A DNA stretch of 64,000 nucleotides from the NCBI GenBank assembly GCA_965214255.1, contig OZ243948.1, forward strand, positions 1,433,885 through 1,497,884, given 5' to 3'. The position numbers were made by a program, and so were the translations under genes. Below, one piece after another: positions 1 through 12,411 of the stretch (position 1 is its first letter; each line of letters begins with the position of its first letter). Source of the DNA: Alphaproteobacteria bacterium. Its GTDB lineage: Bacteria > Pseudomonadota > Alphaproteobacteria > SMXP01. The notes beneath the pieces are model-generated. The model was not told the origin of the DNA. It did not search any database and saw nothing but the letters and a program-made list of their open reading frames with translations.

Positions 1-608
1 AACGCGAACAGTTTTTCCCGAGGGTCGCGGTCGCGCTTGTACTGCTCGACGGCGTCGTCGGCGGTCTGCTTGGTGAGGCTGTTCTTCAGTTCGAAGGTGA
101 GGACGGGAAGGCCGTTGATGAACAGCGCGATGTCCAGCTCGCGCGAAGTCTCGTTCGCGCTGTAGCGCAGTTGCCGGGTGACGGTGAAGCGGTTCTGCTG
201 AAAACGCTCTTGCGCCGTCTCGTTGCCCGGGGACGGGGTGCCGTAGAACAGGTCGATCCGGTGGGCGCCGTGTTTGACGCCATCTCGGAGTACGTCAACG
301 GTCCCGCGCTTGGAGACTTCGCCGCGCAACCGGTCCAGGAACTTGCGGCGGGTGGGGCCGTCTTCCGAAAGGCTCAGAGACTCGGCGACACGAGGTTGCG
401 TCTCCCGGAGGAAGGCGGAGAGTTGGTGCAGGTCGACGCAGTGCTCCCGGTCGTAGTGGCGGTGACTGCCGGGTCTCCACCCGACGCCGCCAGGGGCCGC
501 GGACGTATCGAAGTCCGCCGCAGTGGCCGTCGGCTCGCACGGGTCGCCGGCCAGCGCCGTGCAGATCAGGCGTTCGAGGCCGCGTTCGGTGGTGTCTGTG
601 GTCGTCAT
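1..608 (-). CDS. hsdR: Type I restriction enzyme R subunit (HsdR), N-terminal part; gene runs off the window edge
   Basis: Minus-strand frame is open to position 1 with ATG at 608..606. Hand translation gives MTTTDTTERGLERLICTALAGDP... then ...RELDIALFINGLPVLTFELKNSLTKQTADDAVEQYKRDRDPREKLF, which is the conserved HsdR N-terminal region (D-x-x-L-F-x-N-G-x-P-x-x-x-x-E-x-K). It lies 5 bp downstream of orf256 in the same operon as hsdS and hsdM. Confidence 0.8.
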   Translation of the reverse strand, partial: MTTTDTTERGLERLICTALAGDPCEPTATAADFDTSAAPGGVGWRPGSHRHYDREHCVDLHQLSAFLRETQPRVAESLSLSEDGPTRRKFLDRLRGEVSKRGTVDVLRDGVKHGAHRIDLFYGTPSPGNETAQERFQQNRFTVTRQLRYSANETSRELDIALFINGLPVLTFELKNSLTKQTADDAVEQYKRDRDPREKLFA

Positions 609-613
609 GTCGC

Positions 614-1384
614 CTAGTTCAAGACGGCGACGAATTCGTCCGGTCGCGACCAGCACGAAACGGTGGATAAAGGCTCGATCATCTTGAAATCTTCATCGGA
701 CCAGACGTCGGACGTGTCGTCGAACAACGAAACGAACTCGTGGGCCTTCGGTCCTGCGGCGAGGTGATTCAGATCGTGCCAGACTGCCACCGCGTGCTCG
801 GAGACCCTGCGGGCCGCCGCACGGTTTCCGGTAGTCAAGACCAGAACAAGAGAACTTCGCCGCTCGGCGCGAACGTGAAAATCGATCGTCCAGCGATGCC
901 CCGAACGCCCGACCAGCTTCTCACCGGGTTCGAACTCAAACTCCCTCTCGGTAAGGAAGTCGGCGACGTCACCGGTAATAGACTGAACCGCCTGCGTTCG
1001 GAACGTGAACCACAGGTCGGATACGCGCAGGGCCGCCTGCGCGACCCGGGTGACGACCTCCGCAAGGTCGTCGCCGGGCCGACACTTCGCCTGAAGCATG
1101 CCCCGGCGGAACTCGATTCCATGCGTCACGCATGTATCTTCGATAAGCCGCGTCTGCTTCGGTGAGCGGCGCAACGACATGGACTGCATCCGAAGCCAGC
1201 CCGTGGTTTCGGCAAGGTCGCTCACCGTCACCCCGTTGTCATGGACTTGGCAGAAGAGATCGATGTTGTCGCCGTCCGGGTAGAGATAGGGCGTCCGAAT
1301 CCGTTGATGGTCTCCCTGCTCCGAGCAGGTGAACAAGGCGCCCAAGCGTTCCTGAAGATCACGGCAGATTTGGCTGGAGTCCAT
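614..1384 (-). CDS. Hypothetical protein (256 aa) encoded between hsdS and hsdR; no motif recognised
   Basis: ORF with ATG at 1384..1382 and stop 5 bp before the hsdR start. It is co-oriented and tightly packed inside the hsd operon. No signal peptide and no Walker, HEPN or Fic motifs were seen. Confidence 0.55.
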   Translation of the reverse strand: MDSSQICRDLQERLGALFTCSEQGDHQRIRTPYLYPDGDNIDLFCQVHDNGVTVSDLAETTGWLRMQSMSLRRSPKQTRLIEDTCVTHGIEFRRGMLQAKCRPGDDLAEVVTRVAQAALRVSDLWFTFRTQAVQSITGDVADFLTEREFEFEPGEKLVGRSGHRWTIDFHVRAERRSSLVLVLTTGNRAAARRVSEHAVAVWHDLNHLAAGPKAHEFVSLFDDTSDVWSDEDFKMIEPLSTVSCWSRPDEFVAVLN

Positions 1385-1423
1385 CAGAACATCTCACTTG
1401 GTTATCTTCTCGGCCAATGGAGT

Positions 1424-2875
1424 TCACACCGCCGCCGTTTCACGAGAGGCGTCGATATTGTCGGCTTCCGTCGGAGTCTCGTCAAGTCCGGGGTCGTCGG
1501 TCTCGTCTTCGGCGGCGAGGGGGTCGACCTGCGGCAGGGCCGCCGCCGCTTCGCGCACGTCTAGCTTGCCGGTGACGACATCGGCGACGAGGCGGGCGCG
1601 GTATTCGTCGAGCAGTTCGACTTCGCGGTCGGCGCGGGCGATGGCAGCGTCGATGTCGGCGGCAGCCTTGTCGAGATATGCGACGATGGCGGTTTGTTCG
1701 GGGAGGGGTGGTAAAATCACAGAGACTTTTTTCAACTCAGGCCAGTAAAGATTACGCTGTATTGTTCCTACCCCCTTGGAAAAAATCAGATATTGCGAAA
1801 CCATCAATTTTGTGCGTAGCAAGTAATTTGCATATACCGGATTCCAGCAATCGTTGAGACTTAAGACAATGTATGCTGGGCTTACTATTCCTTTGTATTG
1901 GGATACGCCTACCGATCCACGCCAAGCCTGTTGGTTGTTAAGAACAAAATCTCCCGGATCGACAGCTTGATAGTTAATCAAATCAACGCTTGTGGCATTT
2001 GCGCGCTTTTCTTCGACATCAGAAAACCTAACAACAGATTTATCCAGGTAGACGGAAAGAAGCTCTCGTTCCGGACAGTTACGCACGGACTTTAGATTGG
2101 AAACTGCACAGATCGGTAACACCTCCCAATGCGCCGGTACTTCCCCCAGCCATTCGACGCCGGAGTCCTTCATGGGCGCGTCGGGGTCGAGGCCGCGGGT
2201 GACGGCGCGGTGGACGAGGGCCTGCTTTTGCTCTTTGAGCAGAGCCACCAGCTTGCGCTTCGCCTTCGTGAGCCACCGCACCCGCCGGTCTATGTAGTCC
2301 AGATACCGCACGATGGCAGTTTGTTCATCCGGCGCCGTTGGAACCGCGACCGATATTTCTCGCATCCGAGCCTTCGACAAGTCCCACTGTCCAATACGAA
2401 CCCCATCTGAAGCCTTGTTGAAGCTAGGAACATACGCCTTTGATCTTATGGCCGTGTGAAAGAAGTCGCCATCGACTCCATGAAGGGCAAACACGAAGTA
2501 CGCGGGACTCACCAGCCCATTAAATTTCGACACACCATACGAGCCCTGCCACGCCTTCATCTTGTTCATGGCAAATTGACCTTGTTGAACGACCTTGTAA
2601 TTGCTTAGGTCGTCGGGAACGTAATTGTGGTTTTCGTCCCTATTGGAGAGGTCTCTAAGAATCACACCCTGTTCCCGCACCACTGATAGCAGAGGCAAAT
2701 CAGGCTGATTTCTAGTGACAACAGATCGGAGAAGGTGCCTTAGTTTCTTGATTTCCCAATGCGCCGGTACTTCGCCCAGCCACGCGACGCCGGAGTCCTT
2801 CATTTCGGGATAGGGTTCGAGTGTCTTGGCAACGGCTGCGGCCGTCGCTTCCACAGGTCGATCGGTCCCGGTCAT
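1424..2875 (-). CDS. hsdS: Type I R-M specificity subunit HsdS with two target-recognition domains
   Basis: The duplicated conserved segments KDSGVAWLGEVPAHWE and KDSGVEWLGEVPAHWE and the PEQTAIV motifs fit the two-TRD HsdS architecture. Preferred start is the ATG at 2875, which forms an ATGA overlap with the orf126 stop; the ORF track extends to 2902. Confidence 0.9.
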   Translation of the reverse strand: MTGTDRPVEATAAAVAKTLEPYPEMKDSGVAWLGEVPAHWEIKKLRHLLRSVVTRNQPDLPLLSVVREQGVILRDLSNRDENHNYVPDDLSNYKVVQQGQFAMNKMKAWQGSYGVSKFNGLVSPAYFVFALHGVDGDFFHTAIRSKAYVPSFNKASDGVRIGQWDLSKARMREISVAVPTAPDEQTAIVRYLDYIDRRVRWLTKAKRKLVALLKEQKQALVHRAVTRGLDPDAPMKDSGVEWLGEVPAHWEVLPICAVSNLKSVRNCPERELLSVYLDKSVVRFSDVEEKRANATSVDLINYQAVDPGDFVLNNQQAWRGSVGVSQYKGIVSPAYIVLSLNDCWNPVYANYLLRTKLMVSQYLIFSKGVGTIQRNLYWPELKKVSVILPPLPEQTAIVAYLDKAAADIDAAIARADREVELLDEYRARLVADVVTGKLDVREAAAALPQVDPLAAEDETDDPGLDETPTEADNIDASRETAAV

Positions 2876-3252
2876 GGAGCGGCATCCGCCTTGTACCGCC
2901 AACCGCGCTCCGTAGCGGCTACGGTGAGCCGTTTCGCCTTCTTTTCGACTTGCGTGTTGGAGCAGGCGGTGAAATCGATCAGCGCATGAGCGGGATGAGG
3001 CTCAGGATCGGGCTCAACCGGCAAGTCCTGCGCGGCACAGTCGCCACGGGAGACGGCGAGGACGCCGACCGAGGCGAACCCGAGATCTCCCGTGTAATAC
3101 GCCCAGGCGTCTTCAGCCGTAATCAGATCGCCGTCATAAACCGACAGACGCTTGCCGTCCTTGGGGAAAGGTTTGAACGCCTGGCTGGTCACGCGGCCTT
3201 TCTGTACCCAGGACGGGCTAACCTGACGATACAGCAAGGCGTCGTCGTTCAT
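2872..3252 (-). CDS. Hypothetical protein (126 aa), translationally coupled to orf375 upstream and hsdS downstream
   Basis: ATGA overlaps occur at both ends (3249-3252 and 2872-2875). Sequence: MNDDALLYRQVSPSWVQKGRVTSQAFKPFPKDGKRLSVYDGD...HALIDF. No recognisable family. Confidence 0.5.
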   Translation of the reverse strand: MNDDALLYRQVSPSWVQKGRVTSQAFKPFPKDGKRLSVYDGDLITAEDAWAYYTGDLGFASVGVLAVSRGDCAAQDLPVEPDPEPHPAHALIDFTACSNTQVEKKAKRLTVAATERGWRYKADAAP

Positions 3253-4376
3253 GACGCCTTGCCCAGGGTTTTCTCAAGTTTCTCAACGAGCCATGCCCAG
3301 GAATCGTCATCCTCGAGACCGAGCTCGCGGGTCTCTTCGTCGTCGGTCTCCAGGTCGAGTCCGTGCCATGTGCCGCGCTTATCGGCCAAGTGAATATCCA
3401 GCGACAAGTTCCACCGGTCGTTCGACCACTCGGCGCGAATGTCGCCTTCGGGAGTGGGATAGAGGTGCGGCAACACGGTTTCATCGGGATAATGAAGATC
3501 GCAGGCTCTTTCCAGCCAATCGACCCCGTCCGCCGGAGGAGCTTTGCCTTCCCCTTCCAGCCAGCCGTCCTTCAGCAGGCGTATCTCGTCGAGCCGCGCG
3601 CCGATGTCCAGAGGATCGAGGGCGTTGATGTGCTCGATGGAATCGAATCGGACCAATTTTCCGCCGCGATTCACGACGCCTACTCCTTGAATCAGAACCT
3701 TTTGCCCGGCCTGATAGCCGTTGAACACTTCCAATATGGTGTCTCGGTGTTGCGGAGCAATGGGCGCCGCCACCTTCTTGCCGTCAGGCAACTGCAACTC
3801 GAACCGCATATTGTCCTGATCCGCCTCCGGGACCAGGCCGCGAATGGCGGTCTCCTCGGCGATCTCCCGCGCCGAGGCGGATGCGTAGACCAGTCGTCGC
3901 CTGATTTCGCGGTCGAGTCTTGCGGGAGCAGGCCCGCTCCGCGTTCCGAATTCCATGGCTTCCCCTTCCCGAAGGCTTCGCCCCATCCGGTCGAAGTAGC
4001 TGAGCCATTTCTCGGGCAGGTAATCCGTAATTCCCTCTCCTTTTTCAGCGGCGGCAATGGCCGAAACGATCAAATTACGGGCCTTCTCGAAGTACTTCTG
4101 ATTCACCGGCGGAAACAGCGTCGGAGAGGCCGTAACCAGCGAGATCACGGGAACCGCGCTGCCGTCCTCGATGCCCGTCAGCTTCAATTCGATGCCGTTG
4201 GTAAATCCGCGCGGCGATCTTTTTCGGTCAGGATGGTCTTTGAGAAACTCGGTTTTCGCCACCTCGACGATCATCTCCTCAAGGACGGCCAGGTCCTTCA
4301 AAAACTCCAAGGGGATCGCCTTCCCTTCGAAGCGACTTCCGGTCAGCCTGGGTCGCATGAACTCATGTGCGCTCAT
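3249..4376 (-). CDS. Hypothetical protein (375 aa) within the hsd operon
   Basis: Long ORF with good codon periodicity that overlaps the fic stop by 14 bp and orf126 by ATGA. No catalytic motif recognised; the C-terminus is acidic (…LETDDEETRELGLEDDDSWAWLVEKLEK). Confidence 0.55.
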   Translation of the reverse strand: MSAHEFMRPRLTGSRFEGKAIPLEFLKDLAVLEEMIVEVAKTEFLKDHPDRKRSPRGFTNGIELKLTGIEDGSAVPVISLVTASPTLFPPVNQKYFEKARNLIVSAIAAAEKGEGITDYLPEKWLSYFDRMGRSLREGEAMEFGTRSGPAPARLDREIRRRLVYASASAREIAEETAIRGLVPEADQDNMRFELQLPDGKKVAAPIAPQHRDTILEVFNGYQAGQKVLIQGVGVVNRGGKLVRFDSIEHINALDPLDIGARLDEIRLLKDGWLEGEGKAPPADGVDWLERACDLHYPDETVLPHLYPTPEGDIRAEWSNDRWNLSLDIHLADKRGTWHGLDLETDDEETRELGLEDDDSWAWLVEKLEKTLGKAS

Positions 4377-5607
4377 CGTTCACCTCGACGGTTTCCCCGC
4401 CCGGACTCTCGCCCGCCAATCCCTCGCTCTCACGTTCCGGCGCGGCATCCAGTTCGGTTCCTTCATTGAGGATGGCCAAGTACCGGCCATAAGCGAACAG
4501 GCGCCCGTAGTGCCTTCCCGTAACTTCACGGACAATCCCGTAGTCGACAAGCCGGTCCATCGCCGATGAAACGGCGGGAAAGGAGAGCACCTTGCGCTTG
4601 CAAATCTCGGAAATGGAGAGGATCGGTCGTTCCGTCAGGGCCTGATGCACGAGCAAGGCCGAACCGGTGCGGCGGCCCCGCCTTTCTATGGCTTCCCTGT
4701 CTTTCATAAACATCTCGGACAGGCGGCGAGAGGTGGCGACCGCGTCTTCGGCGCCCACCCGCACGCTTTCGAGAAAGAAAGCCAGCCACGCTTCCCAGTC
4801 ACCGGTGCGGCGCACATGGTCCAACAAATCATAATACGTGCTTTGGCGGCGCTTGAAGTAAAGGCTCAAATACAGCAGCGGTTCCCGCAATACGCCGGAC
4901 CGACAAAGCAGAAGAACGATCAACAGCCGCCCGATGCGCCCGTTGCCGTCGAGGAAGGGATGGACGGTCTCGAACTGTACATGGGCGAGCCCCGCGCGGA
5001 TCAATACCGGCAGCCCGTCGTCCTCCGCGTTCAGAAAGCGCTCCAGGTCGGACATGCAGTCCTGCACGGCGGTATACGGCGGGGGCACGAATACCGCGTT
5101 GCCGGGCCGGGTGCCGCCAATCCAGTTCTGCGAACGGCGGAATTCGCCGGGCGCCTTGTTGCTTCCCCGCCCTCTCCGCAACAACACGCCGTGAATCTCG
5201 CGGATCAGACGATTGGACATCGGGAAGCCTTCCCGCAGGCGGCTCAGGCCGTGCTCCAGGGCGGCCACATGGTTCGAGACTTCGACGACATCGTCCAGCG
5301 GCACGCCGGACCTCTCCTGCGACTCATAAAGCAGGAGATCGGAAAAGGACGATTGCGTTCCCTCTATCTGCGAGGACAGGACGGCTTCCTTGCGTACATA
5401 GGCGTAAAGAAAGAGCGTCGAGTCGGGTAAAAACGCCGAGATGTTATCGAGCCGGCCGAGGGCGAGGGCCGCCGATTCGAAGGACTGTTGCAGAGCGCCG
5501 TCCAGGACGGGCGGGGGATCGGGCGGCAGCGGCGCAGGCAGAAAGGCGCGGACCCGTTCGCCCCCCGCGCTCGTGATTTCGTATCCGCCTATTTCTCCGC
5601 GCTCCAT
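4363..5607 (-). CDS. fic: Fic-family protein (adenylyltransferase/AMPylator fold) with an N-terminal inhibitory helix motif
   Basis: Canonical Fic motif HPFLDGNGRIGRLL (HxFx[DE]GNGRxxR). An upstream [ST]xxxE[GN] inhibitory motif (SSQIEG) is consistent with a class II arrangement. C-terminal region is wHTH-like. ATG at 5607..5605. Confidence 0.85.
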   Translation of the reverse strand: MERGEIGGYEITSAGGERVRAFLPAPLPPDPPPVLDGALQQSFESAALALGRLDNISAFLPDSTLFLYAYVRKEAVLSSQIEGTQSSFSDLLLYESQERSGVPLDDVVEVSNHVAALEHGLSRLREGFPMSNRLIREIHGVLLRRGRGSNKAPGEFRRSQNWIGGTRPGNAVFVPPPYTAVQDCMSDLERFLNAEDDGLPVLIRAGLAHVQFETVHPFLDGNGRIGRLLIVLLLCRSGVLREPLLYLSLYFKRRQSTYYDLLDHVRRTGDWEAWLAFFLESVRVGAEDAVATSRRLSEMFMKDREAIERRGRRTGSALLVHQALTERPILSISEICKRKVLSFPAVSSAMDRLVDYGIVREVTGRHYGRLFAYGRYLAILNEGTELDAAPERESEGLAGESPGGETVEVNDERT

Positions 5608-5686
5608 ATCGGATGAGTACCGAGTGATTTAAAGGAAATTGAATTTACCACTGTGAAATTAAAATTTCACGCAAAAAATTTAATTT
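5563..5686. repeat. Direct repeat copy A (~124 bp): AT-rich segment plus the first ~15 codons of fic
   Basis: About 92% identical to 5947..6069, including the stretch gagtaccgagtgatttaaaggaaattgaatttaccactgtgaaattaaaatttcacgcaaaaaatttaatt. Confidence 0.8.
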
Positions 5687-5743
5687 GCTGTAACCGGCAG
5701 TCCTTCGGGTTCCCGCTCCAAAGCCGGAATGCGGCTCCATATG

Positions 5744-5903
5744 TAACGCAGCCTTTCATACGGCAAGAATATGGTTCTATATGTTCGGCAGCCGTTCATA
5801 TAGCGGGCATTTGGGCCCATATGTAACGCAGCCGTTCATATAGCGGGAATGTGGACCCATATGTAACGCAGCCTTGAATATGGCGTTCTGTTGAGGCGGC
5901 CTT
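5744..5903. repeat. 4 x 40-bp tandem repeat, each unit containing CATATG/CATATA palindromic elements
   Basis: The units ggctccatatgtaacgcagcctttcatacggcaagaatat, ggttctatatgttcggcagccgttcatatagcgggcattt, gggcccatatgtaacgcagccgttcatatagcgggaatgt and ggacccatatgtaacgcagccttgaatatggcgttctgtt are directly adjacent. GC is about 45%. Confidence 0.8.
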
Positions 5904-5946
5904 GAACATTCATGCGGGACACTCCCCGACGATCTCGCCCGGCAGT

Positions 5947-6069
5947 CCCCGCGCTCGTGGTTTCGTATCCGCCTGTTTCTCCGCGCCGCATATCGGATGA
6001 GTACCGAGTGATTTAAAGGAAATTGAATTTACCACTGTGAAATTAAATTTTCACGCAAAAAACTTAATT
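5947..6069. repeat. Direct repeat copy B with a degenerate fic start (MRRGETGGYETTSAG) fused to an hsdM-3'-end-like tail
   Basis: Reverse-complement reads atg cgg cgc gga gaa aca ggc gga tac gaa acc acg agc gcg ggg, then act gcc ggg cga gat cgt cgg. This tail resembles the hsdM terminus gct gct ggg cga gat cgt cgg caa gta g. Copy B lies 40 bp downstream of the true hsdM stop. Confidence 0.7.
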
Positions 6070-6109
6070 CTCTACAAGTAAAACCTTACATCAAGACAGG
6101 TTCAGGTTC

Positions 6110-8083
6110 CTACTTGCCGACGATCTCGCCCAGCAGCCCCCCGCTCTCCCGTCCCAGCGCGAGGATGTCGCCTCGAATCTCCTCAAGGGAGCGCATCGGC
6201 TCCGGCTTGTAGAAGTGGCGCGTGAAGCTGATCTCGTAGCCGATCTTGACAGCTTCCGGGCGATACCAGGCGTCGGGCGCGTAGGGCAAGACCTCGCGCT
6301 TCAGGAACGCCTCTATGCCGCCCTTCTCGGTGAGCGGGACCTGCTCCGTGTCGCGCAGGTCCGGGTCCGGCTCGTACTCGACCACGGCGGGTTCGCCCTC
6401 GACGGTCGCCTCGAACAAGCCATGCAGAGGGTCCGCCCCCCCCCGCCTGTGGATCTTGCGGATGACGGGCGGCGCGTCCTCGGAGCGCGCGCCGGTCTCT
6501 TTGAGCGTCTTGATCTCCGCCGCCTTGCAGGCGCGGTTCGGGTCGGCGCCCTCGATGCGGAGCGGGCGCTCCACGACCACTTTCCAATACCCGAAAGCCT
6601 CGTTGTCGAAGATCCTGCTCCGCTCGGTTTCCTCGAAATCGAGGAACGCCTCGCAGATGCGCCGGATGTCGTCCTCGCCCAACTCGCAGTTCTTCTTGCC
6701 CAGATTCTTACGCAGGGGCCGGTACCACTCGGTCGCGTCGATGAGTTGCACTTTGCCCCGGCGGTGCTCCGGCTTGCGGTTGGTCAGCACCCAGACGTAG
6801 GTGGCGATGCCGGTGTTGTAGAACAGGTTCAGCGGCAGCGCGACGATCGCTTCCAGCCAGTCGTTCTCGATGATCCAGCGGCGGATGTTGCTCTCGCCCT
6901 GGCCGGCGTCGCCGGTGAACAGCGAACTGCCGTTGTGGACCTCGGCGATGCGGCTGCCGAGGGGCGTGTCCCGCTTCATCTTGGAGAGCAGGTTGACGAG
7001 GAACAGCATCTGCCCGTCGCTCGACCGCGTCACCAGGGAATATTCCGGGTCGTCGCCGTGTTGGATCATAAAGCGCGGATCGTGCATGTCCTTCTTGCCG
7101 CCCATGCGCTCCAGGTCCGTCTTCCAGCTTTTGCCGTAGGGCGGATTGGAGAGCATGAAGTCGAACGCGCGCGGGTGGGGGTAGGCATCGTTGGCCAGGG
7201 TGGAGTGTTGCGGGCCGCCCTCGATTTTATCCGCGTCATCGCCCTCGCCCTTGAGCATCAGGTCGGCCTTGCAGATCGCCGCGGTCTCCGCGTTGATCTC
7301 CTGGCCGTAGAGGTGCGTCGAGACCTGTTTCCCGCGTTCCGCGGCCAGTTCCTGCAGCGTCTGTTCCGCCAGGGTCAGCATGCCGCCGGTCCCGCACGCG
7401 CCGTCATAGAGAAGGTACGTGCCGGATTCGATCCGGTCGGAGATCGGCTGGAACACCAGCTTCGCCATCAGCCGCACCGCGTCGCGGGGCGTCCAGTGCT
7501 CACCGGCCTCCTCGTTGTTCTCCTCGTTGAAGCGGCGCACCAGTTCTTCGAAGATCGTACCGATGGCGTGGTTGTCGAGGCCCGGGAGCTTGATATCGCC
7601 TTTGGCGTCCTTGACGGGTTCCGGGCTCAGGTTCACCTTGGGGGAGGTGAATTTCTCGATCAAGACCCCGAGCGCGTCGGCGCGGCTCAGGCGGGGGATC
7701 TGGTTGCGGAACTCGAAGTTGTCGAGTATCTCCTGCACGTTCGGCGAGAATCCGTCGAGATAGGCCAAGAAGTCCGCTTCAAGTTGGTGCTGGTTGCCTC
7801 GCGCCCGCAGATCGTTGAGCGTGAATTGGGAGGTGTTGTAGAACGCCTGCCCCGACGCCTGGCGCAAGGCGGCGCTCTGGTCGACCAGACCGGCCCGGTC
7901 GAGACTGGCCTTCATGTCGAGGACCGCCCGTTTGGTGTCTTCGAGGACCGCGTCGAGACGACGCAGGACGGTCATCGGGAGGATCACGTCGCGGTACTTG
8001 CCCCGCGTGTAGAGGTCCCGGAGCACGTCATCGGCGATTCCCCAAATGTAGTTCGCAATCCACGTTACATCGCCGTTGGTCAT
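6110..8083 (-). CDS. hsdM: Type I R-M N6-adenine DNA methyltransferase subunit HsdM (long form, 657 aa)
   Basis: NPPYG catalytic motif (LSNPPYGKSW) and a SAM-binding region (LYDGACGTGGML). Neighbours hsdS and hsdR lie on the same strand. Confidence 0.9.
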   Translation of the reverse strand: MTNGDVTWIANYIWGIADDVLRDLYTRGKYRDVILPMTVLRRLDAVLEDTKRAVLDMKASLDRAGLVDQSAALRQASGQAFYNTSQFTLNDLRARGNQHQLEADFLAYLDGFSPNVQEILDNFEFRNQIPRLSRADALGVLIEKFTSPKVNLSPEPVKDAKGDIKLPGLDNHAIGTIFEELVRRFNEENNEEAGEHWTPRDAVRLMAKLVFQPISDRIESGTYLLYDGACGTGGMLTLAEQTLQELAAERGKQVSTHLYGQEINAETAAICKADLMLKGEGDDADKIEGGPQHSTLANDAYPHPRAFDFMLSNPPYGKSWKTDLERMGGKKDMHDPRFMIQHGDDPEYSLVTRSSDGQMLFLVNLLSKMKRDTPLGSRIAEVHNGSSLFTGDAGQGESNIRRWIIENDWLEAIVALPLNLFYNTGIATYVWVLTNRKPEHRRGKVQLIDATEWYRPLRKNLGKKNCELGEDDIRRICEAFLDFEETERSRIFDNEAFGYWKVVVERPLRIEGADPNRACKAAEIKTLKETGARSEDAPPVIRKIHRRGGADPLHGLFEATVEGEPAVVEYEPDPDLRDTEQVPLTEKGGIEAFLKREVLPYAPDAWYRPEAVKIGYEISFTRHFYKPEPMRSLEEIRGDILALGRESGGLLGEIVGK

Positions 8084-8128
8084 GGGCCGGGGTCTCGGAA
8101 GGGTGAAGGGCGCGGCGATCTTACCCGA

Positions 8129-8157
8129 CGGGCGCGGGGAAAACAGCCCCCCGCCCG
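8129..8157 (-). terminator. GC-rich hairpin downstream of the phosphatase gene (possible terminator, no U-tract)
   Basis: cgggcgcgggg-aaaacag-ccccccgcccg forms an 11-bp stem with one mismatch. It lies 20 bp past the stop at 8177. Confidence 0.25.
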
Positions 8158-8176
8158 ATACGATTCGACAGGGCGT

Positions 8177-8881
8177 TCAGCGCCGCCGGGCATGACGATA
8201 ACGCGCCGCCGGCGCGCCGTGGGCCTGGAGAAATCGAGGGTCGCCGCCGTCGAGAACGACGGCCGTCATGGCGCCGGAAAAATAGGCGCCGGTATCGATG
8301 CCGATTCGATTGGGCTTGAGTTCCGGGTCCGCACGGGGCGAATGGCCGTGCACCACCTTCACCGGAGCGCCCTTATAGGTGTAGGCGCGCTCGCTGTTCA
8401 AAAACCGATCCCTGATCCAGTAGAGATCGCGCGTTTTCTGATGCTCCAGATCGGTCTCCGGGTCGACCCCCGCATGGGCGAAATAGAAACCGTCCCGCAC
8501 ATGATGGGAGGCAAGGCCGGCGATCCAGTCGCGGTGAGCTTTCGGCACCTCCCCGCCGTAGCTTGTCAAAGTCTGCGCGCCGCCGTTGAGGAGCCACACA
8601 TGGCCGTGTTTTCCGGCGTAATAGTCCTCCATCAACGCTTCGTGGTTGCCTTTGAGGCATATTTCGTCGAACCCGTGCTTGGCGAGGGGTTTTTCCATCA
8701 GCAACCCGACGACGCCTGCGGAATTTTCGCCGCGGTCGATATAGTCGCCCAGATAGACGACGGTGCGCGCCCGCTCCCGATAATGCTCGGCCGCGTCTTT
8801 CGCTATCAGGTCCACGAGCCGGGCGAACTGGTCGAGCATGCCGTGAACGTCGCCCACGGCGTAGGTCACGCGCCGCGTCAT
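8177..8881 (-). CDS. Metallophosphoesterase, Ser/Thr protein phosphatase 1 / ApaH-like family
   Basis: Phosphoesterase motifs GDVHG, GDYIDRG and GNHE. Confidence 0.85.
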   Translation of the reverse strand: MTRRVTYAVGDVHGMLDQFARLVDLIAKDAAEHYRERARTVVYLGDYIDRGENSAGVVGLLMEKPLAKHGFDEICLKGNHEALMEDYYAGKHGHVWLLNGGAQTLTSYGGEVPKAHRDWIAGLASHHVRDGFYFAHAGVDPETDLEHQKTRDLYWIRDRFLNSERAYTYKGAPVKVVHGHSPRADPELKPNRIGIDTGAYFSGAMTAVVLDGGDPRFLQAHGAPAARYRHARRR

Positions 8882-8924
8882 GGGACTCTCCCGGTTCGGA
8901 CGATTTGTCGACTGCGCGCCATTC

Positions 8925-10637
8925 TCAGCGAATGAAACCGAGACTTTCGAGTTTGACGATCAGGCGGTGGGCCGCCAGATCGGGAGACAGTTGTTCCGTA
9001 TCTATGGAGATTTCGGGATTTTCGGGAACGTCGTAGGGGTCGCTGATACCCGTGAACTCCTTGATCAGGCCGGCGCGCGCCTTGGCGTAAAGCCCCTTTC
9101 GGTCCCGCCGTTCGCACACCTGCAAGGACGTCGCGACATAGGACTCCACGAAACCGCCGACGGGCTCGATCATCTCGCGCACCGCCCGCCGCGTCGCGGC
9201 ATAGGGCGCTATAGGCGCGCAAATGGCGATGCCTCCGTTCTTGGTGATCTCGCTCGCCACATATCCTATGCGCAGGATGTTGAGATCGCGGTGTTCTTTC
9301 GAAAAGCCCAGTTCGCTCGACAGGTTCTTGCGGACGATATCGCCGTCCAAAAGCGTGATCCGCCGCCCGCCGATTTCCATGAGCTTTATCATCAGAGCGT
9401 TGGCGACGGTCGACTTGCCCGACCCGGAAAGACCCGTAAAGAACACGGTGAAGCCCTGCTCGTGCCGCGGCGGATGGGTCTTGCGCAGTTCGCTGATGAC
9501 GGCGGGGAACGAAAACCAGTCGGGAACGTCGAGACCCTCGCGCAGCCGTCGGCGCATTTCGGTGCCCGAAATCTCGAGGACCGTCTCGTCGGACCCGGTC
9601 CGGTCCACCGGCACGTACTGGTTCCGCTCCCGGACATAGACCATCGCGCGGAACGGCACCATGGCGATGCCCAACTCGTCTTCGAACTTCACCATGAGGT
9701 CCTGAGCGTCGTAAGGACCGTAAAAATCCTTGCCGTTCCTGTCCTTCCCCGGGCCCGCATGGTCGCGCCCCACGATGAAATGCGTGCAGCCGTAATTTTT
9801 TCGGATAAGGGCGTGCCAAAGCGCTTCGCGCGGGCCCGCCATGCGCATCGCCAGAGGCAGCAGGCTCAGCGCCGTCGTTTGATCCGGGTATTGATGCAGC
9901 ACATGCTCGTAGCAGCGCACGCGAGTGAAATGGTCGACGTCGCCCGGCTTGGTCATGCCGACGACCGGATGAATGAGCAGATTGGCCTCCGCCTCGCGCG
10001 CGGCCCTGAAGGTCAGTTCCTGGTGCGCGCGGTGCATGGGATTGCGCGTTTGAAAGGCGACGACCCTGCGCCAGCCCAGCTTCTCGAAGCGGTCGCGCAG
10101 CTCCCGGGGGCTGTATCTCAAATGTTTGAAATCGTAATGGATCGGGGCCTGGACCCCGGCGAGGGCGCCGCCCAGGTAAACCGGATGGGCGCGATTGAAA
10201 AGATAGTTGACGCCGGGATGCGTGTCGTCGACGGTGCCGAACACCGCCCGGGCTTCGGATTCCTTGTCGGGCGTCCATTTCTCTTCGACTTCGAGGCTTG
10301 CGATATGGACCCCTTCACGGTCTCGAAGCACGAGGGTCTCGTCGATGTCGACCGTAGCGGCGAACTCCTCGGACACGTCCAGCGTGACGGGCATGGGCCA
10401 CAGCACGCCGCTGTCAAGCCGCATGTCTTTCAAGACGCTCTCGTAGTCGGCTTGTTTCAAAAAACCGTCGAGCGGCGAGAACGCCCCGTTGAGCAACAAT
10501 TCCACATCGCAGATCTGGCGCTCGGTCAAATCCCAGGACTTGAAATCAAGCGCCCGTTTCTTTTCGCGCTCCGCCTGCTCGGACGACAGATAAAGAATCT
10601 TGAGTTCGCCGCCGTGCGGCTCTTTGAAAGCCCCCAT
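8925..10637 (-). CDS. sat: Bifunctional sulfate adenylyltransferase (ATP sulfurylase) / adenylylsulfate kinase
   Basis: N-terminal ATP-sulfurylase region (FQTRNPMHRAHQEL) and C-terminal APS-kinase P-loop (GLSGSGKST). Confidence 0.9.
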   Translation of the reverse strand: MGAFKEPHGGELKILYLSSEQAEREKKRALDFKSWDLTERQICDVELLLNGAFSPLDGFLKQADYESVLKDMRLDSGVLWPMPVTLDVSEEFAATVDIDETLVLRDREGVHIASLEVEEKWTPDKESEARAVFGTVDDTHPGVNYLFNRAHPVYLGGALAGVQAPIHYDFKHLRYSPRELRDRFEKLGWRRVVAFQTRNPMHRAHQELTFRAAREAEANLLIHPVVGMTKPGDVDHFTRVRCYEHVLHQYPDQTTALSLLPLAMRMAGPREALWHALIRKNYGCTHFIVGRDHAGPGKDRNGKDFYGPYDAQDLMVKFEDELGIAMVPFRAMVYVRERNQYVPVDRTGSDETVLEISGTEMRRRLREGLDVPDWFSFPAVISELRKTHPPRHEQGFTVFFTGLSGSGKSTVANALMIKLMEIGGRRITLLDGDIVRKNLSSELGFSKEHRDLNILRIGYVASEITKNGGIAICAPIAPYAATRRAVREMIEPVGGFVESYVATSLQVCERRDRKGLYAKARAGLIKEFTGISDPYDVPENPEISIDTEQLSPDLAAHRLIVKLESLGFIR

Positions 10638-10830
10638 CGATCAGTTCTCCAAACGCACCAGGATCCGCCGCCGAATCGCTGCGCGAAGCGATAGTTTAGT
10701 TCCGGGGACAAGGCAAGCCGTTTTCCACAATTACTTGAGGAAACCCCGGCGCGCGGAGCGAAGATCGGCGATGGGCGCGCGCGGTCGAGACGGCTCCCGC
10801 CGTGACGTCAACGGCGGATGATATTGTCCG

Positions 10831-11307
10831 TCACGGCCTGTCGCCGGGGCCGTCCGCGGCCCGGTCGTCTTCACCGTCGTTCGACCGCCGTATCGGCGAC
10901 GCGGCGCGCCGCCAAGAGCCCCGCTCCACTCGATAGCGCCCGCGGGCGGAAAACGACTCGCCCGGCGGCTTCACGACCTCGACGAGCGCGCCGGCCAGCG
11001 AAATACAACTGCGGTGATTGAGCATATGGACGGATGTCTCGCCTCCCGTCGTCGCCCGGACAAGGACGGCCTGAGCGTCGTCGTCGCCGCGGCGGAAGCC
11101 TCGATTGCACACGGTCACGCCGCGGGCGCGGGCGCCCGTATCGACAATCACGGCGTCGTTCAGTTCGGTGACCGCCCAGGAATTCCAACCGCCGGTTGCA
11201 ATCCTGCTCAAGGCGACGGAGCGAAACGAGAGCGAAAACGAAAGCGCGACCGCGCCGAGCGCGATCACGACGGCGAAAACCGCCAAACACAGATTCACGA
11301 TCTTCAT
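10831..11307 (-). CDS. Hypothetical exported protein (158 aa) with an N-terminal hydrophobic signal-like segment
   Basis: MKIVNLCLAVFAVVIALGAVALS... is signal-like. The alternative overlapping frame 10871..11464 is arginine-rich and low-complexity, so it was rejected. Confidence 0.4.
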   Translation of the reverse strand: MKIVNLCLAVFAVVIALGAVALSFSLSFRSVALSRIATGGWNSWAVTELNDAVIVDTGARARGVTVCNRGFRRGDDDAQAVLVRATTGGETSVHMLNHRSCISLAGALVEVVKPPGESFSARGRYRVERGSWRRAASPIRRSNDGEDDRAADGPGDRP

Positions 11308-11478
11308 GAAAATGCCCTTCCCTGATAATGAACGGCTGTCGACTGCGGCGCCGGAAGCGGTCTCGAACCCGGTCGTGCAACCGGCCCCGAACGAGGACCG
11401 GATGGTGTTTCGGGGACATTAAATCATGCTTAAACATCCGCGAGCGACGGCGAGAGGCGCTCACGCCGAAGCGGCGTA

Positions 11479-12411
11479 TCAGGCGGCGGGGCGAAAGCCG
11501 AGCGGGAGCCCGGCGTCGGGGACGAAACCGTACATGTCTTCATCGGGCACCGCTGCGGCCACCACCTTGCGCACCTCCAGCAATTGGTGCAGGTCGATGC
11601 CCGTCTTGAGACCCATCGCTTCGAGCATGAAGACCAGATCTTCGGTGACGATGTTGCCGCTGGCGCCCGGCGCGAACGGACAGCCGCCGATGCCGCCGAG
11701 GGAACTGTCGATCGTGGTGACGTCTTCCTCGATCGCCGCCAGGACATTGGCGAGGCCCAGGCCGCGGGTGTTGTGCAAATGAATGCCCGTGACCGCGTCC
11801 GCGCCGACGGCGGCGCGCACCGCGCGGATCATGTCTTTGACCTGCTTCGGGTTGGCGTAGCCGGTCGTATCCGACAGTCCGACTTCGTCGCAGCCCGCCG
11901 CCATCAACTGCTCCGCAAGGGAAACCACCTTCGACTGCGGGATCTCGCCTTCCAGGGTGCATCCGAACGCCGTCGACAAGCCGCCTTCGAACTTGGGCCT
12001 CTCGTCGGCAGGTAGACCCCTCAGAAGCGCCGCGATGCCGCGCACCTCGTCCAACATCCGGGCGTGGTCGCGGTTGACGTTTTTGAGACTGTGGGTCTCG
12101 CTCACGGACAAGGGAATGGTGATCTTGTGGACGCCGGTTTTGACGGCGTTTTCGGCCCCCTTCAGATTCGGCACCAGCGCCGCGACGGTGAGGCCCTCGA
12201 TGGTGAGCGCATGTTCGACGACGGCCGCCGTATCGGCCAGTTGCGGCAAGATCCTGGGCGGCACGAAAGAGCCGACCTCGATTTCCGGAACGCCGGCCGC
12301 CGCTTCCGCCGCGATCCATGCCTTCTTGGCCTCGGTCGGCATGATGGAGTCGATGCTTTGGAGGCCGTCTCGCGGGCCGACTTCGCTGATCTCGATATCA
12401 ATGGCGCTCAT
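11479..12411 (-). CDS. Hydroxymethylglutaryl-CoA lyase
   Basis: Motifs EVGPRDGLQ, GGCPFAPGASGN and the HxH-type metal ligands typical of the HMGL-like TIM barrel. Confidence 0.85.
   Translation of the reverse strand: MSAIDIEISEVGPRDGLQSIDSIMPTEAKKAWIAAEAAAGVPEIEVGSFVPPRILPQLADTAAVVEHALTIEGLTVAALVPNLKGAENAVKTGVHKITIPLSVSETHSLKNVNRDHARMLDEVRGIAALLRGLPADERPKFEGGLSTAFGCTLEGEIPQSKVVSLAEQLMAAGCDEVGLSDTTGYANPKQVKDMIRAVRAAVGADAVTGIHLHNTRGLGLANVLAAIEEDVTTIDSSLGGIGGCPFAPGASGNIVTEDLVFMLEAMGLKTGIDLHQLLEVRKVVAAAVPDEDMYGFVPDAGLPLGFRPAA

Follow-up and report, generated by a model that had tools for sequence, protein, structure and literature searches.

Genes nested within Type I restriction-modification (R-M), BREX and DISARM loci have been collected as phage defence candidates (PDC) by 'guilt-by-embedding' (Payne et al. 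2024, bioRxiv 10.1101/2024.01.29.577857). Embedded defence genes were described for Hma loci as well, and two of the candidates, PDC-M32 and PDC-M24, are given in the supplement of that work as two-gene cassettes. The window analysed here – 64,000 nucleotides from an Alphaproteobacteria bacterium (GenBank assembly GCA_965214255.1, contig OZ243948.1, positions 1,433,885–1,497,884) – shows exactly this phenomenon. At one end of it is a Type I R-M locus in which four extra genes, fic, orf375, orf126 and orf256, are on the same strand as hsdM, hsdS and hsdR and nested between them. The window differs from the catalogue, which offers no fold, mechanism or test for PDC-M32 or PDC-M24, in that its PDC-M24 is without the A gene.

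Other described systems resemble parts of this locus. The anticodon nucleases PrrC-EcoprrI and RloC are latent toxic effectors situated between hsd genes, as is proposed below for the window, but they have no homology to any of its genes, and PDC-M32 and PDC-M24, unlike them, also occur without Type I genes. Because of this last point, obligatory control of PDC-M32 or PDC-M24 by the R-M enzyme is unlikely. The SoFic family has been reported as an abortive-infection defence. DarTG, ParST/Xre-RES and MbcTA are toxin-antitoxin systems with an ADP-ribosyltransferase (ART) fold, some of which defend against phage. TreTu-TriTu is a Salmonella Rhs1 ART toxin with its immunity protein (PDB 7ZHL, 7ZHM); TreTu is an ART of 113 amino acids (aa) that binds the phosphates of NAD+ through an arginine and a serine and has a basic C-terminal helix.

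The two intergenic slots of the window's Type I locus hold three independent mobile cassettes: fic, PDC-M32 (orf375 and orf126, encoding M32A and M32B) and orf256. The locus is an added instance of defence genes in a Type I R-M operon, not a new category. The new element is a testable hypothesis for PDC-M32, that of an ART toxin with an immunity protein. The account as a whole – a Type I locus, two slots, three independent mobile cassettes, and PDC-M32 as an ART toxin with an inhibitory partner – is considered reasonably likely.

Three cassettes in a Type I locus

All genes of the locus are on the minus strand, in the order hsdM, a 502-bp spacer, fic, orf375, orf126, hsdS, orf256 and hsdR (open reading frame (ORF) map, Table 1). 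The original prediction, made by a model from the sequence, was of a Type I R-M locus with four extra genes, and this is borne out by Pfam and PADLOC matches. The region is one Type I R-M locus, hsdM-hsdS-hsdR, of the PADLOC MTase_I PDLC03029 type. HsdM is a Type I methyltransferase subunit (PF02384 1.5e-49, PF12161 1.8e-21), and HsdS is a Type I specificity subunit, with PF01420 matches (9.7e-12) that span both halves of the protein. The syntenic locus L081 encodes a complete HsdR of 1004 aa at the hsdR position, where the window has 202 residues only, the motor domains being off the window.

The gene set had been described as one not recognised and possibly new, which did not hold: PADLOC-DB v2 already has a model for every gene, and these match the four extra genes as SoFic, PDC-M32A, PDC-M32B and PDC-M24B. 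The PDC-M32A and PDC-M32B matches are full-length on adjacent genes of the same strand, making orf375-orf126 a candidate PDC-M32. In the literature PDC-M32 is mentioned only as a PADLOC match in a Sinorhizobium prophage. Profile searches and structure prediction had been suggested for orf375, orf126 and orf256. Folds could be modelled for the first two, while sequence-only searches gave little: orf375 and orf126 had zero matches in Pfam, NCBIfam and PDB sequences, both as single proteins and as profiles, and the sole match of orf256 was DUF1828.

The hsd backbone and the M32 cassette are shared, at ~85% DNA identity, with two sister loci, L081 (on a 357-kb metagenome contig from the European Nucleotide Archive) and L009 (in a Nitrospirales metagenome-assembled genome). 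In the window, the first slot (hsdM-hsdS) would hold a SoFic-family Fic AMPylase and PDC-M32, and the second (hsdS-hsdR) orf256. The slot after hsdM has in addition a Gp49/HTH_37 (HigBA-like) pair and a DUF2188 gene in L081, and PDC-M19A with a PDC-S16-like gene in L009. The slot before hsdR is occupied by PDC-S06 (a PrrC/LmuB-like ABC ATPase) in L009 and by the M24A and M24B genes in L081. The three sister loci thus show cassette swapping in two fixed slots. The gene order had been called non-canonical; the order itself is real, but the description was overstated, as many related loci have the arrangement hsdM-[cassettes]-hsdS-[cassette]-hsdR.

It is very improbable that the four extra genes are, as had been supposed, one co-evolved accessory module working with the R-M enzyme. 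The tight packing with overlaps does suggest one transcript, and the order Fic-M32A-M32B-hsdS-...-hsdR is found in L081 and L009 also. Against this, the slot before hsdR is filled differently in each of these loci, and the Fic of the window is just 47.5% identical to that of L081 while the M32 DNA is 85% identical, which therefore rules out a single co-evolved four-gene module. Among 80 loci with PDC-M32, fic is found once and orf256 never; conversely, among 86 loci with orf256 homologs PDC-M32 is in L081 only. Type I genes are lacking altogether from half of the M32 loci.

The 80 M32 loci were found by scanning species-representative genomes with a profile of orf375, and the 86 orf256 loci by a metagenome scan (80) and exact look-ups (6). 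The M32 loci are spread over Verrucomicrobiota, Planctomycetota, Acidobacteriota, Chlorobiota, Bacillota, Chloroflexota, Spirochaetota and Proteobacteria. M32B follows M32A in 75 of the 80, most commonly with a 4-bp overlap. The five loci without an intact pair include two at contig ends, two without M32B and one with a C-terminal remnant of M32B only. A pooled PADLOC scan of the genes upstream of M32A was uninformative due to redundant methyltransferase models, and was replaced by all-against-all clustering of the neighbours. The sole recurrent neighbours were hsdM (26 loci) and hsdS/hsdR (24 loci), usually in the order hsdM>M32A>M32B>hsdS. The linkage of the pair and the predominance of Type I genes among its neighbours therefore mark PDC-M32 as an autonomous cassette of two genes that moves horizontally and strongly prefers the slot between hsdM and hsdS, where roughly half of the paired loci are found.

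Type I genes adjoin the orf375/orf126 homologs in 34 of the 80 loci, or 19 of the 37 with full flanks (at least 5 kb upstream and at least 6 kb downstream). For orf256 homologs the corresponding count is 13 of 21 full-flank loci. The proposed association with defence, which homologs occurring mostly outside R-M contexts would have contradicted, therefore stood, and the extra genes belong with defence and not with housekeeping functions. The M32 loci that are not next to Type I genes are found among housekeeping genes (PGK, TIM, GrpE, PolA), with few defence genes nearby. The possibility that these solitary copies are in general recent escapees from hsd loci was rejected, because a remnant of hsdM upstream of a solitary cassette was found in L045 only. 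In L031 (Isosphaeraceae), two M32A and two M32B ORF matches are found in a row at ~10000–11850, and an ORF of 1123 aa comes next; a tandem duplication and split genes are both possible readings.

The distribution also bears on another explanation, that PDC-M32 is a selfish toxin-antitoxin (addiction) pair and the hsd position a permissive recombination hotspot, with no role in phage defence. About half of the M32 loci are solitary in the way just described. A distant M32-like pair is found on a Limnohabitans plasmid among clustered toxin-antitoxin genes (RelE/ParE, VapBC), the hsd slots also hold the HigBA-like pair, and the three loci with M32A and no intact M32B are what would be expected of a tolerated orphan antitoxin. 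However, M32 is beside Type I genes in ~43–51% of loci, far above random insertion, for which the expectation estimated from typical genome content is roughly 1% or less. M32 is also rare on plasmids, with four weak matches, and the family is absent from deposited phage genomes. PHROG families exist for all these genes. Since phage defence is also a property of many toxin-antitoxin pairs, the two readings are not mutually exclusive. A purely selfish pair is regarded as unlikely.

Predicted folds and proposed mechanism of PDC-M32

The AlphaFold2 (AF2) model of orf126, with a predicted local distance difference test (pLDDT) score of 95.2, has the split beta-sheet fold of ADP-ribosyltransferases. 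An exhaustive profile search with M32B retrieved 1,306 protein clusters at 50% identity. Across 132 of these relatives, which are 32–56% identical to the window's M32B, five residues (R9, F26, S37, G63 and H89) show conservation of at least 95%. R9 (98%) is on strand 1 (residues 6–11) and S37 (98%) on strand 2 (35–40) of the model, the two strands that carry the NAD+ contacts in ARTs. H89 (95%) opens the fifth strand, in the position of the catalytic glutamate of classical ARTs; the family consensus has a glutamate just before it, which is alanine in the window's M32B. With R9 and S37 as the putative NAD+ contacts and H89 in the position of the catalytic glutamate, M32B would have an unorthodox R-S-H signature. 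The C-terminal helix of M32B (99–116) is rich in lysine and arginine. Other ARTs named in connection with M32B are NarE, heat-labile enterotoxin and pertussis toxin S1.

M32A (orf375) was modelled with a pLDDT of 91.5. The model has an N-terminal alpha/beta part, an OB-like beta-barrel at ~140–252, for which OB-fold matches were obtained from two programs, and a C-terminal domain at ~282–371. Foldseek found no match for M32A in the PDB with E < 0.001. The C-terminal domain is predicted to consist of a helix, a five-strand sheet and a second helix, and in this predicted fold resembles TriTu, in which a five-stranded sheet with two helices forms a lid over the active site of the toxin.

The comparison with TreTu is the basis of the proposal for PDC-M32. 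M32B resembles TreTu in its features – a small ART fold, an arginine and a serine as putative contacts to NAD+, and the basic C-terminal helix – and because of these PDC-M32 is likely, on its modelled folds, to be a toxin-immunity module for abortive infection. There are also differences from TreTu-TriTu. None of the top 150 relatives of M32B is fused to Rhs or to any other polymorphic-toxin carrier. With four times the length of TriTu, M32A contains additional domains. The M32 partner gene precedes that of the predicted toxin, and the cassette is intracellular, as opposed to a secreted effector. M32A and M32B profiles searched against PDB sequences do not recover 7ZHL or 7ZHM at E values up to 10. 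M32B was also considered as the C-terminal domain of a polymorphic toxin, which found no support, as the top 150 representatives are stand-alone proteins of ~125 aa.

We infer toxicity, inhibition by M32A, sensing and an anti-phage function for PDC-M32, which would work as follows. M32B is probably a toxic effector that uses NAD+ to modify a conserved macromolecule of host or phage. M32A, made just upstream of the effector, would cover its active site with the TriTu-like C-terminal domain and keep it inactive, and the OB-like barrel and N-terminal domain of M32A would act as the infection sensor. Upon infection the effector would be released, and growth or phage replication would stop. The broadest form of this proposal, that PDC-M32 is a widespread, uncharacterised anti-phage system in which an R-S-H ART is held by a partner with a TriTu-like lid and an OB-fold sensor, is put forward tentatively, as possible and short of probable. 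If true, it would be a new ART-based mechanism of abortive infection, distinct from DarTG and RES systems, and the candidate targets would be a nucleic acid end (as for Tpt1) or a translation factor (as for TreTu). PDC-M32 is found in many phyla, numbers over 1,300 protein clusters at 50% identity and is without a published function; its modelled folds now provide a lead that makes it directly testable.

PDC-M32 is different from the ART-fold toxin-antitoxin systems named above. Unlike the partners in DarTG, ParST/Xre-RES and MbcTA, M32A has no macrodomain, ARH, NADAR or Xre/DUF2384 domain, and M32B is much smaller than the toxins, with an R-S-H signature in place of H-Y-E or R-E-S. Membership in DarTG itself, which pairs a macrodomain antitoxin with a DUF4433 toxin, was considered and rejected on the absence of a macrodomain in M32A.

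A further alternative is that M32B is a nucleic-acid-modifying or repair enzyme like KptA/Tpt1, the RNA 2'-phosphotransferase, and that M32A is a subunit binding the substrate through its OB-like domain. Tpt1, a protein of 180 aa, has an R-H-R-R tetrad and, at its N-terminus, a further domain that binds RNA. M32B has the NAD-binding lobe only, without this domain, and in place of the R-H dyad of Tpt1 it has R-Q. The patchy, horizontally transferred distribution and the embedding in R-M loci are also unlike those of a housekeeping repair enzyme, and this alternative is given little credence. The identity of M32B to KptA/Tpt1 and to Tse2, a toxin of the type VI secretion system and the second-best match of M32B, is 9–19%. 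Tse2 pairs with an all-helical immunity protein, Tsi2.

Several points weigh against PDC-M32 as an ART toxin with an inhibitory partner in a defence locus. M32B is without the canonical catalytic glutamate of R-S-E and H-Y-E ARTs, as are the atypical ARTs Tpt1 and TreTu. Tse2 is an ART-like toxin without demonstrated ART activity. Foldseek does not recover TriTu for M32A, and the C-terminal domain has a common fold. For a toxin-antitoxin pair the conservation of the two M32 proteins (55–75% identity across phyla) is unusually high, and the top 150 relatives of M32B are, as noted, all free of polymorphic-toxin carriers. There is no defence context for about half of the M32 loci, and orf256, in the other slot of the window, is without its usual partner gene. 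Functional studies of PDC-M32 or PDC-M24 were not found in the literature, and of eight other PADLOC candidates in one study, four protected E. coli.

The fic gene and the DUF1828 gene

The Fic protein of the window is a member of the SoFic family but not an equivalog, judging from its sequence. Both Fic_N (1.2e-23) and Fic (1e-17) domains were found with Pfam, and the PADLOC SoFic match (1.3e-112) covers positions 6–359 of the 361 in the model. The translation contains the active-site motif HPFLDGNGRIGR (HxFx(D/E)GNGRxxR) and the inhibitory motif SSQIEG, an N-terminal (S/T)xxxE(G/N) helix. It has in common with the Shewanella oneidensis Fic, a single-gene system in PADLOC, the Fic_N/Fic domains, the HPFxDGNGRxxR site and the SxxxEG helix. 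Unlike SoFic, it scores 148 bits against the NCBIfam equivalog NF046030, below the cut-off of 550 bits, and has no 47-aa AS1-like gene downstream.

The C-terminal tail of this Fic (window 4363–4440) is ~23 aa longer than in L081, and reads across the ribosome-binding site and the ATG of orf375. Homology between the window and L081 starts only 29 nt before the start codon of M32A, and because of this the overlap of fic with orf375 probably came about incidentally where the cassettes were joined.

Upstream of orf256 homologs, the usual partner is a protein of ~150 aa with the Pfam domain DUF6978, which is PDC-M24A (1e-62 to 1e-69). It is directly upstream in 42 of the 59 loci that could be evaluated and missing from the other 17, while hsdR is directly downstream in 21 of 55. 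The M24A gene is absent from the whole 64-kb window (tblastn with two M24A proteins). L081 has the DUF6978 gene at 9549–9991, between hsdS and the DUF1828 gene, and the window has 39 nt there; the difference is a clean presence or absence of one ~440-bp gene.

The activity of orf256 may be impaired without the DUF6978 partner. It could even be a decaying remnant, a PDC-M24 that lost its A gene and kept a functionless B gene, as the frequency of the A gene in other loci, including the closest syntenic one, and the lack of any trace of ~440-bp M24A elsewhere in the 64 kb would imply. But the reading frame of orf256 is intact and full-length, the protein is 84% identical to that of L081, and the same arrangement of hsdS followed by orf256 without an A gene recurs in L092, L118, L154 and L161. 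L118 and L154 are long enough to show what follows, and in both it is hsdR. A remnant therefore appears somewhat unlikely. Because the frame is intact and the arrangement without the A gene recurs (17 of 59 loci), these data suggest that M24B can work alone or with other partners.

Another hsd locus, L084, has at 6747–9122 a DUF1828 gene that is, by the gene call, fused to a DUF5615 (PIN-like) domain, with three DUF433 genes around it. A toxin-antitoxin-like DUF433/DUF5615 set seems to be inserted there in the same hsdS-hsdR slot.

Junctions and spacer repeats

The coordinates of the genes and repeats are given in Table 1. The anatomy originally reported for the locus was confirmed to the base, including the length of the spacer. 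There are overlaps of 14 bp between fic and orf375 and of 4 bp (ATGA) between orf375 and orf126. The start codon of hsdS is the ATG at 2875, in an ATGA overlap with the stop of orf126, and not the upstream TTG at 2902 chosen by the ORF finder. A gap of 39 nt (1385–1423) separates hsdS from orf256, and 5 nt separate the orf256 stop from the hsdR ATG at 608. From these overlaps and short gaps, fic to hsdR would be co-transcribed. A consensus scan gave no convincing internal promoter or terminator, with sites no more numerous than in shuffled sequence, and zero Rfam RNA families were found in the window.

Table 1. Genes and repeats of the Type I R-M locus, with positions in the window
Feature	Position	Strand	Description	Matches
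hsdM	8083..6110	-	Methyltransferase subunit, 657 aa	Pfam HsdM_N + N6_Mtase; PADLOC MTase_I PDLC03029 2.8e-234
Spacer	6109..5608	-	502 bp, repeat-rich	
fic	5607..4363	-	414 aa, SoFic-family class II Fic (predicted AMPylase)	Pfam Fic_N + Fic; PADLOC SoFic 1.3e-112
orf375 (PDC-M32A)	4376..3249	-	Three-domain partner protein	PADLOC PDC-M32A 2.6e-145
orf126 (PDC-M32B)	3252..2872	-	126 aa, minimal ADP-ribosyltransferase fold, predicted effector/toxin	PDC-M32B 2.1e-51
hsdS	2875..1424	-	Specificity subunit	Pfam Methylase_S; PADLOC Specificity_I 1.9e-120
orf256 (PDC-M24B)	1384..614	-	DUF1828 protein	PDC-M24B 5.2e-100; DUF1828 (PF08861) 9e-12
hsdR	608..1	-	First 202 codons, remainder past left window edge	Pfam HSDR_N 1.5e-16; TIGR00348 hsdR
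123-nt AT-rich block, copy 1 (hsdM-proximal)	5947..6069	-	Direct repeat, near-palindrome GTGAAAATTTAATTTCAC	
123-nt AT-rich block, copy 2	5563..5685	-	Direct repeat, near-palindrome GTGAAATTTTAATTTCAC and first 15 fic codons	
Tandem 40-bp repeats	5722..5881	-	~4 copies; 3.8 copies over 5722–5873, 76% matches, unit GGCTGCGTTACATATGGGYCCA...	Tandem Repeats Finder (TRF), period 40
Second copy of last 30 nt of hsdM	5921..5950	-	87% identical to 6112–6141	

The spacer between hsdM and fic contains three kinds of repeat. The two 123-nt blocks are 95% identical, and copy 2 is the probable promoter/operator of fic, as predicted from its sequence. In copy 1, an ATG at 5991 opens a chimeric ORF of 52 codons, read from the sequence as 16 Fic-like N-terminal codons joined to out-of-frame sequence of the hsdM end; this copy may be a second promoter or a mere relic. 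The 40-bp unit is confined to the spacer within the window, and its 22-nt core has three matches, all in the spacer, compared to none in 100 shuffles. The 40-bp repeats are kept upstream of fic in L081 and L009 at 73–80% identity, and one possibility is that they are an array of binding sites for a regulator. Folding of the spacer is stronger than that of shuffled sequences (z -3.4), which is accounted for by its internal repeats.

Both the second copy of the hsdM end and the 123-nt duplication have the look of recombination scars. The extra genes after hsdM are bracketed in L081 and L009 by a direct repeat of 142–207 nt that consists of the hsdM 3' end and the 40-bp repeats (L081 3084–3225 and 4719–4860; L009 5498–5704 and 8152–8358). 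Both loci also have, between fic and M32A, 18 nt that match the end of the window's hsdM exactly (L081 6282–6299, L009 9738–9755). In three related loci, embedded cassettes thus have copies of the hsdM 3' end at their 5' border, a concrete clue to the assembly of embedded arrays. Serial recombination at the hsdM 3' end may have stacked the cassettes, leaving copies of the hsdM end and duplicated promoter blocks in the spacer. If so, this would be a defined recombination route for cassette stacking in Type I loci.

Upstream of hsdM, at a distance of 93 nt and on the same strand, is a gene for a calcineurin-like metallophosphoesterase of 234 aa (8177–8881). This gene is probably unrelated to the locus; L081 has pilin and TPR genes there instead.

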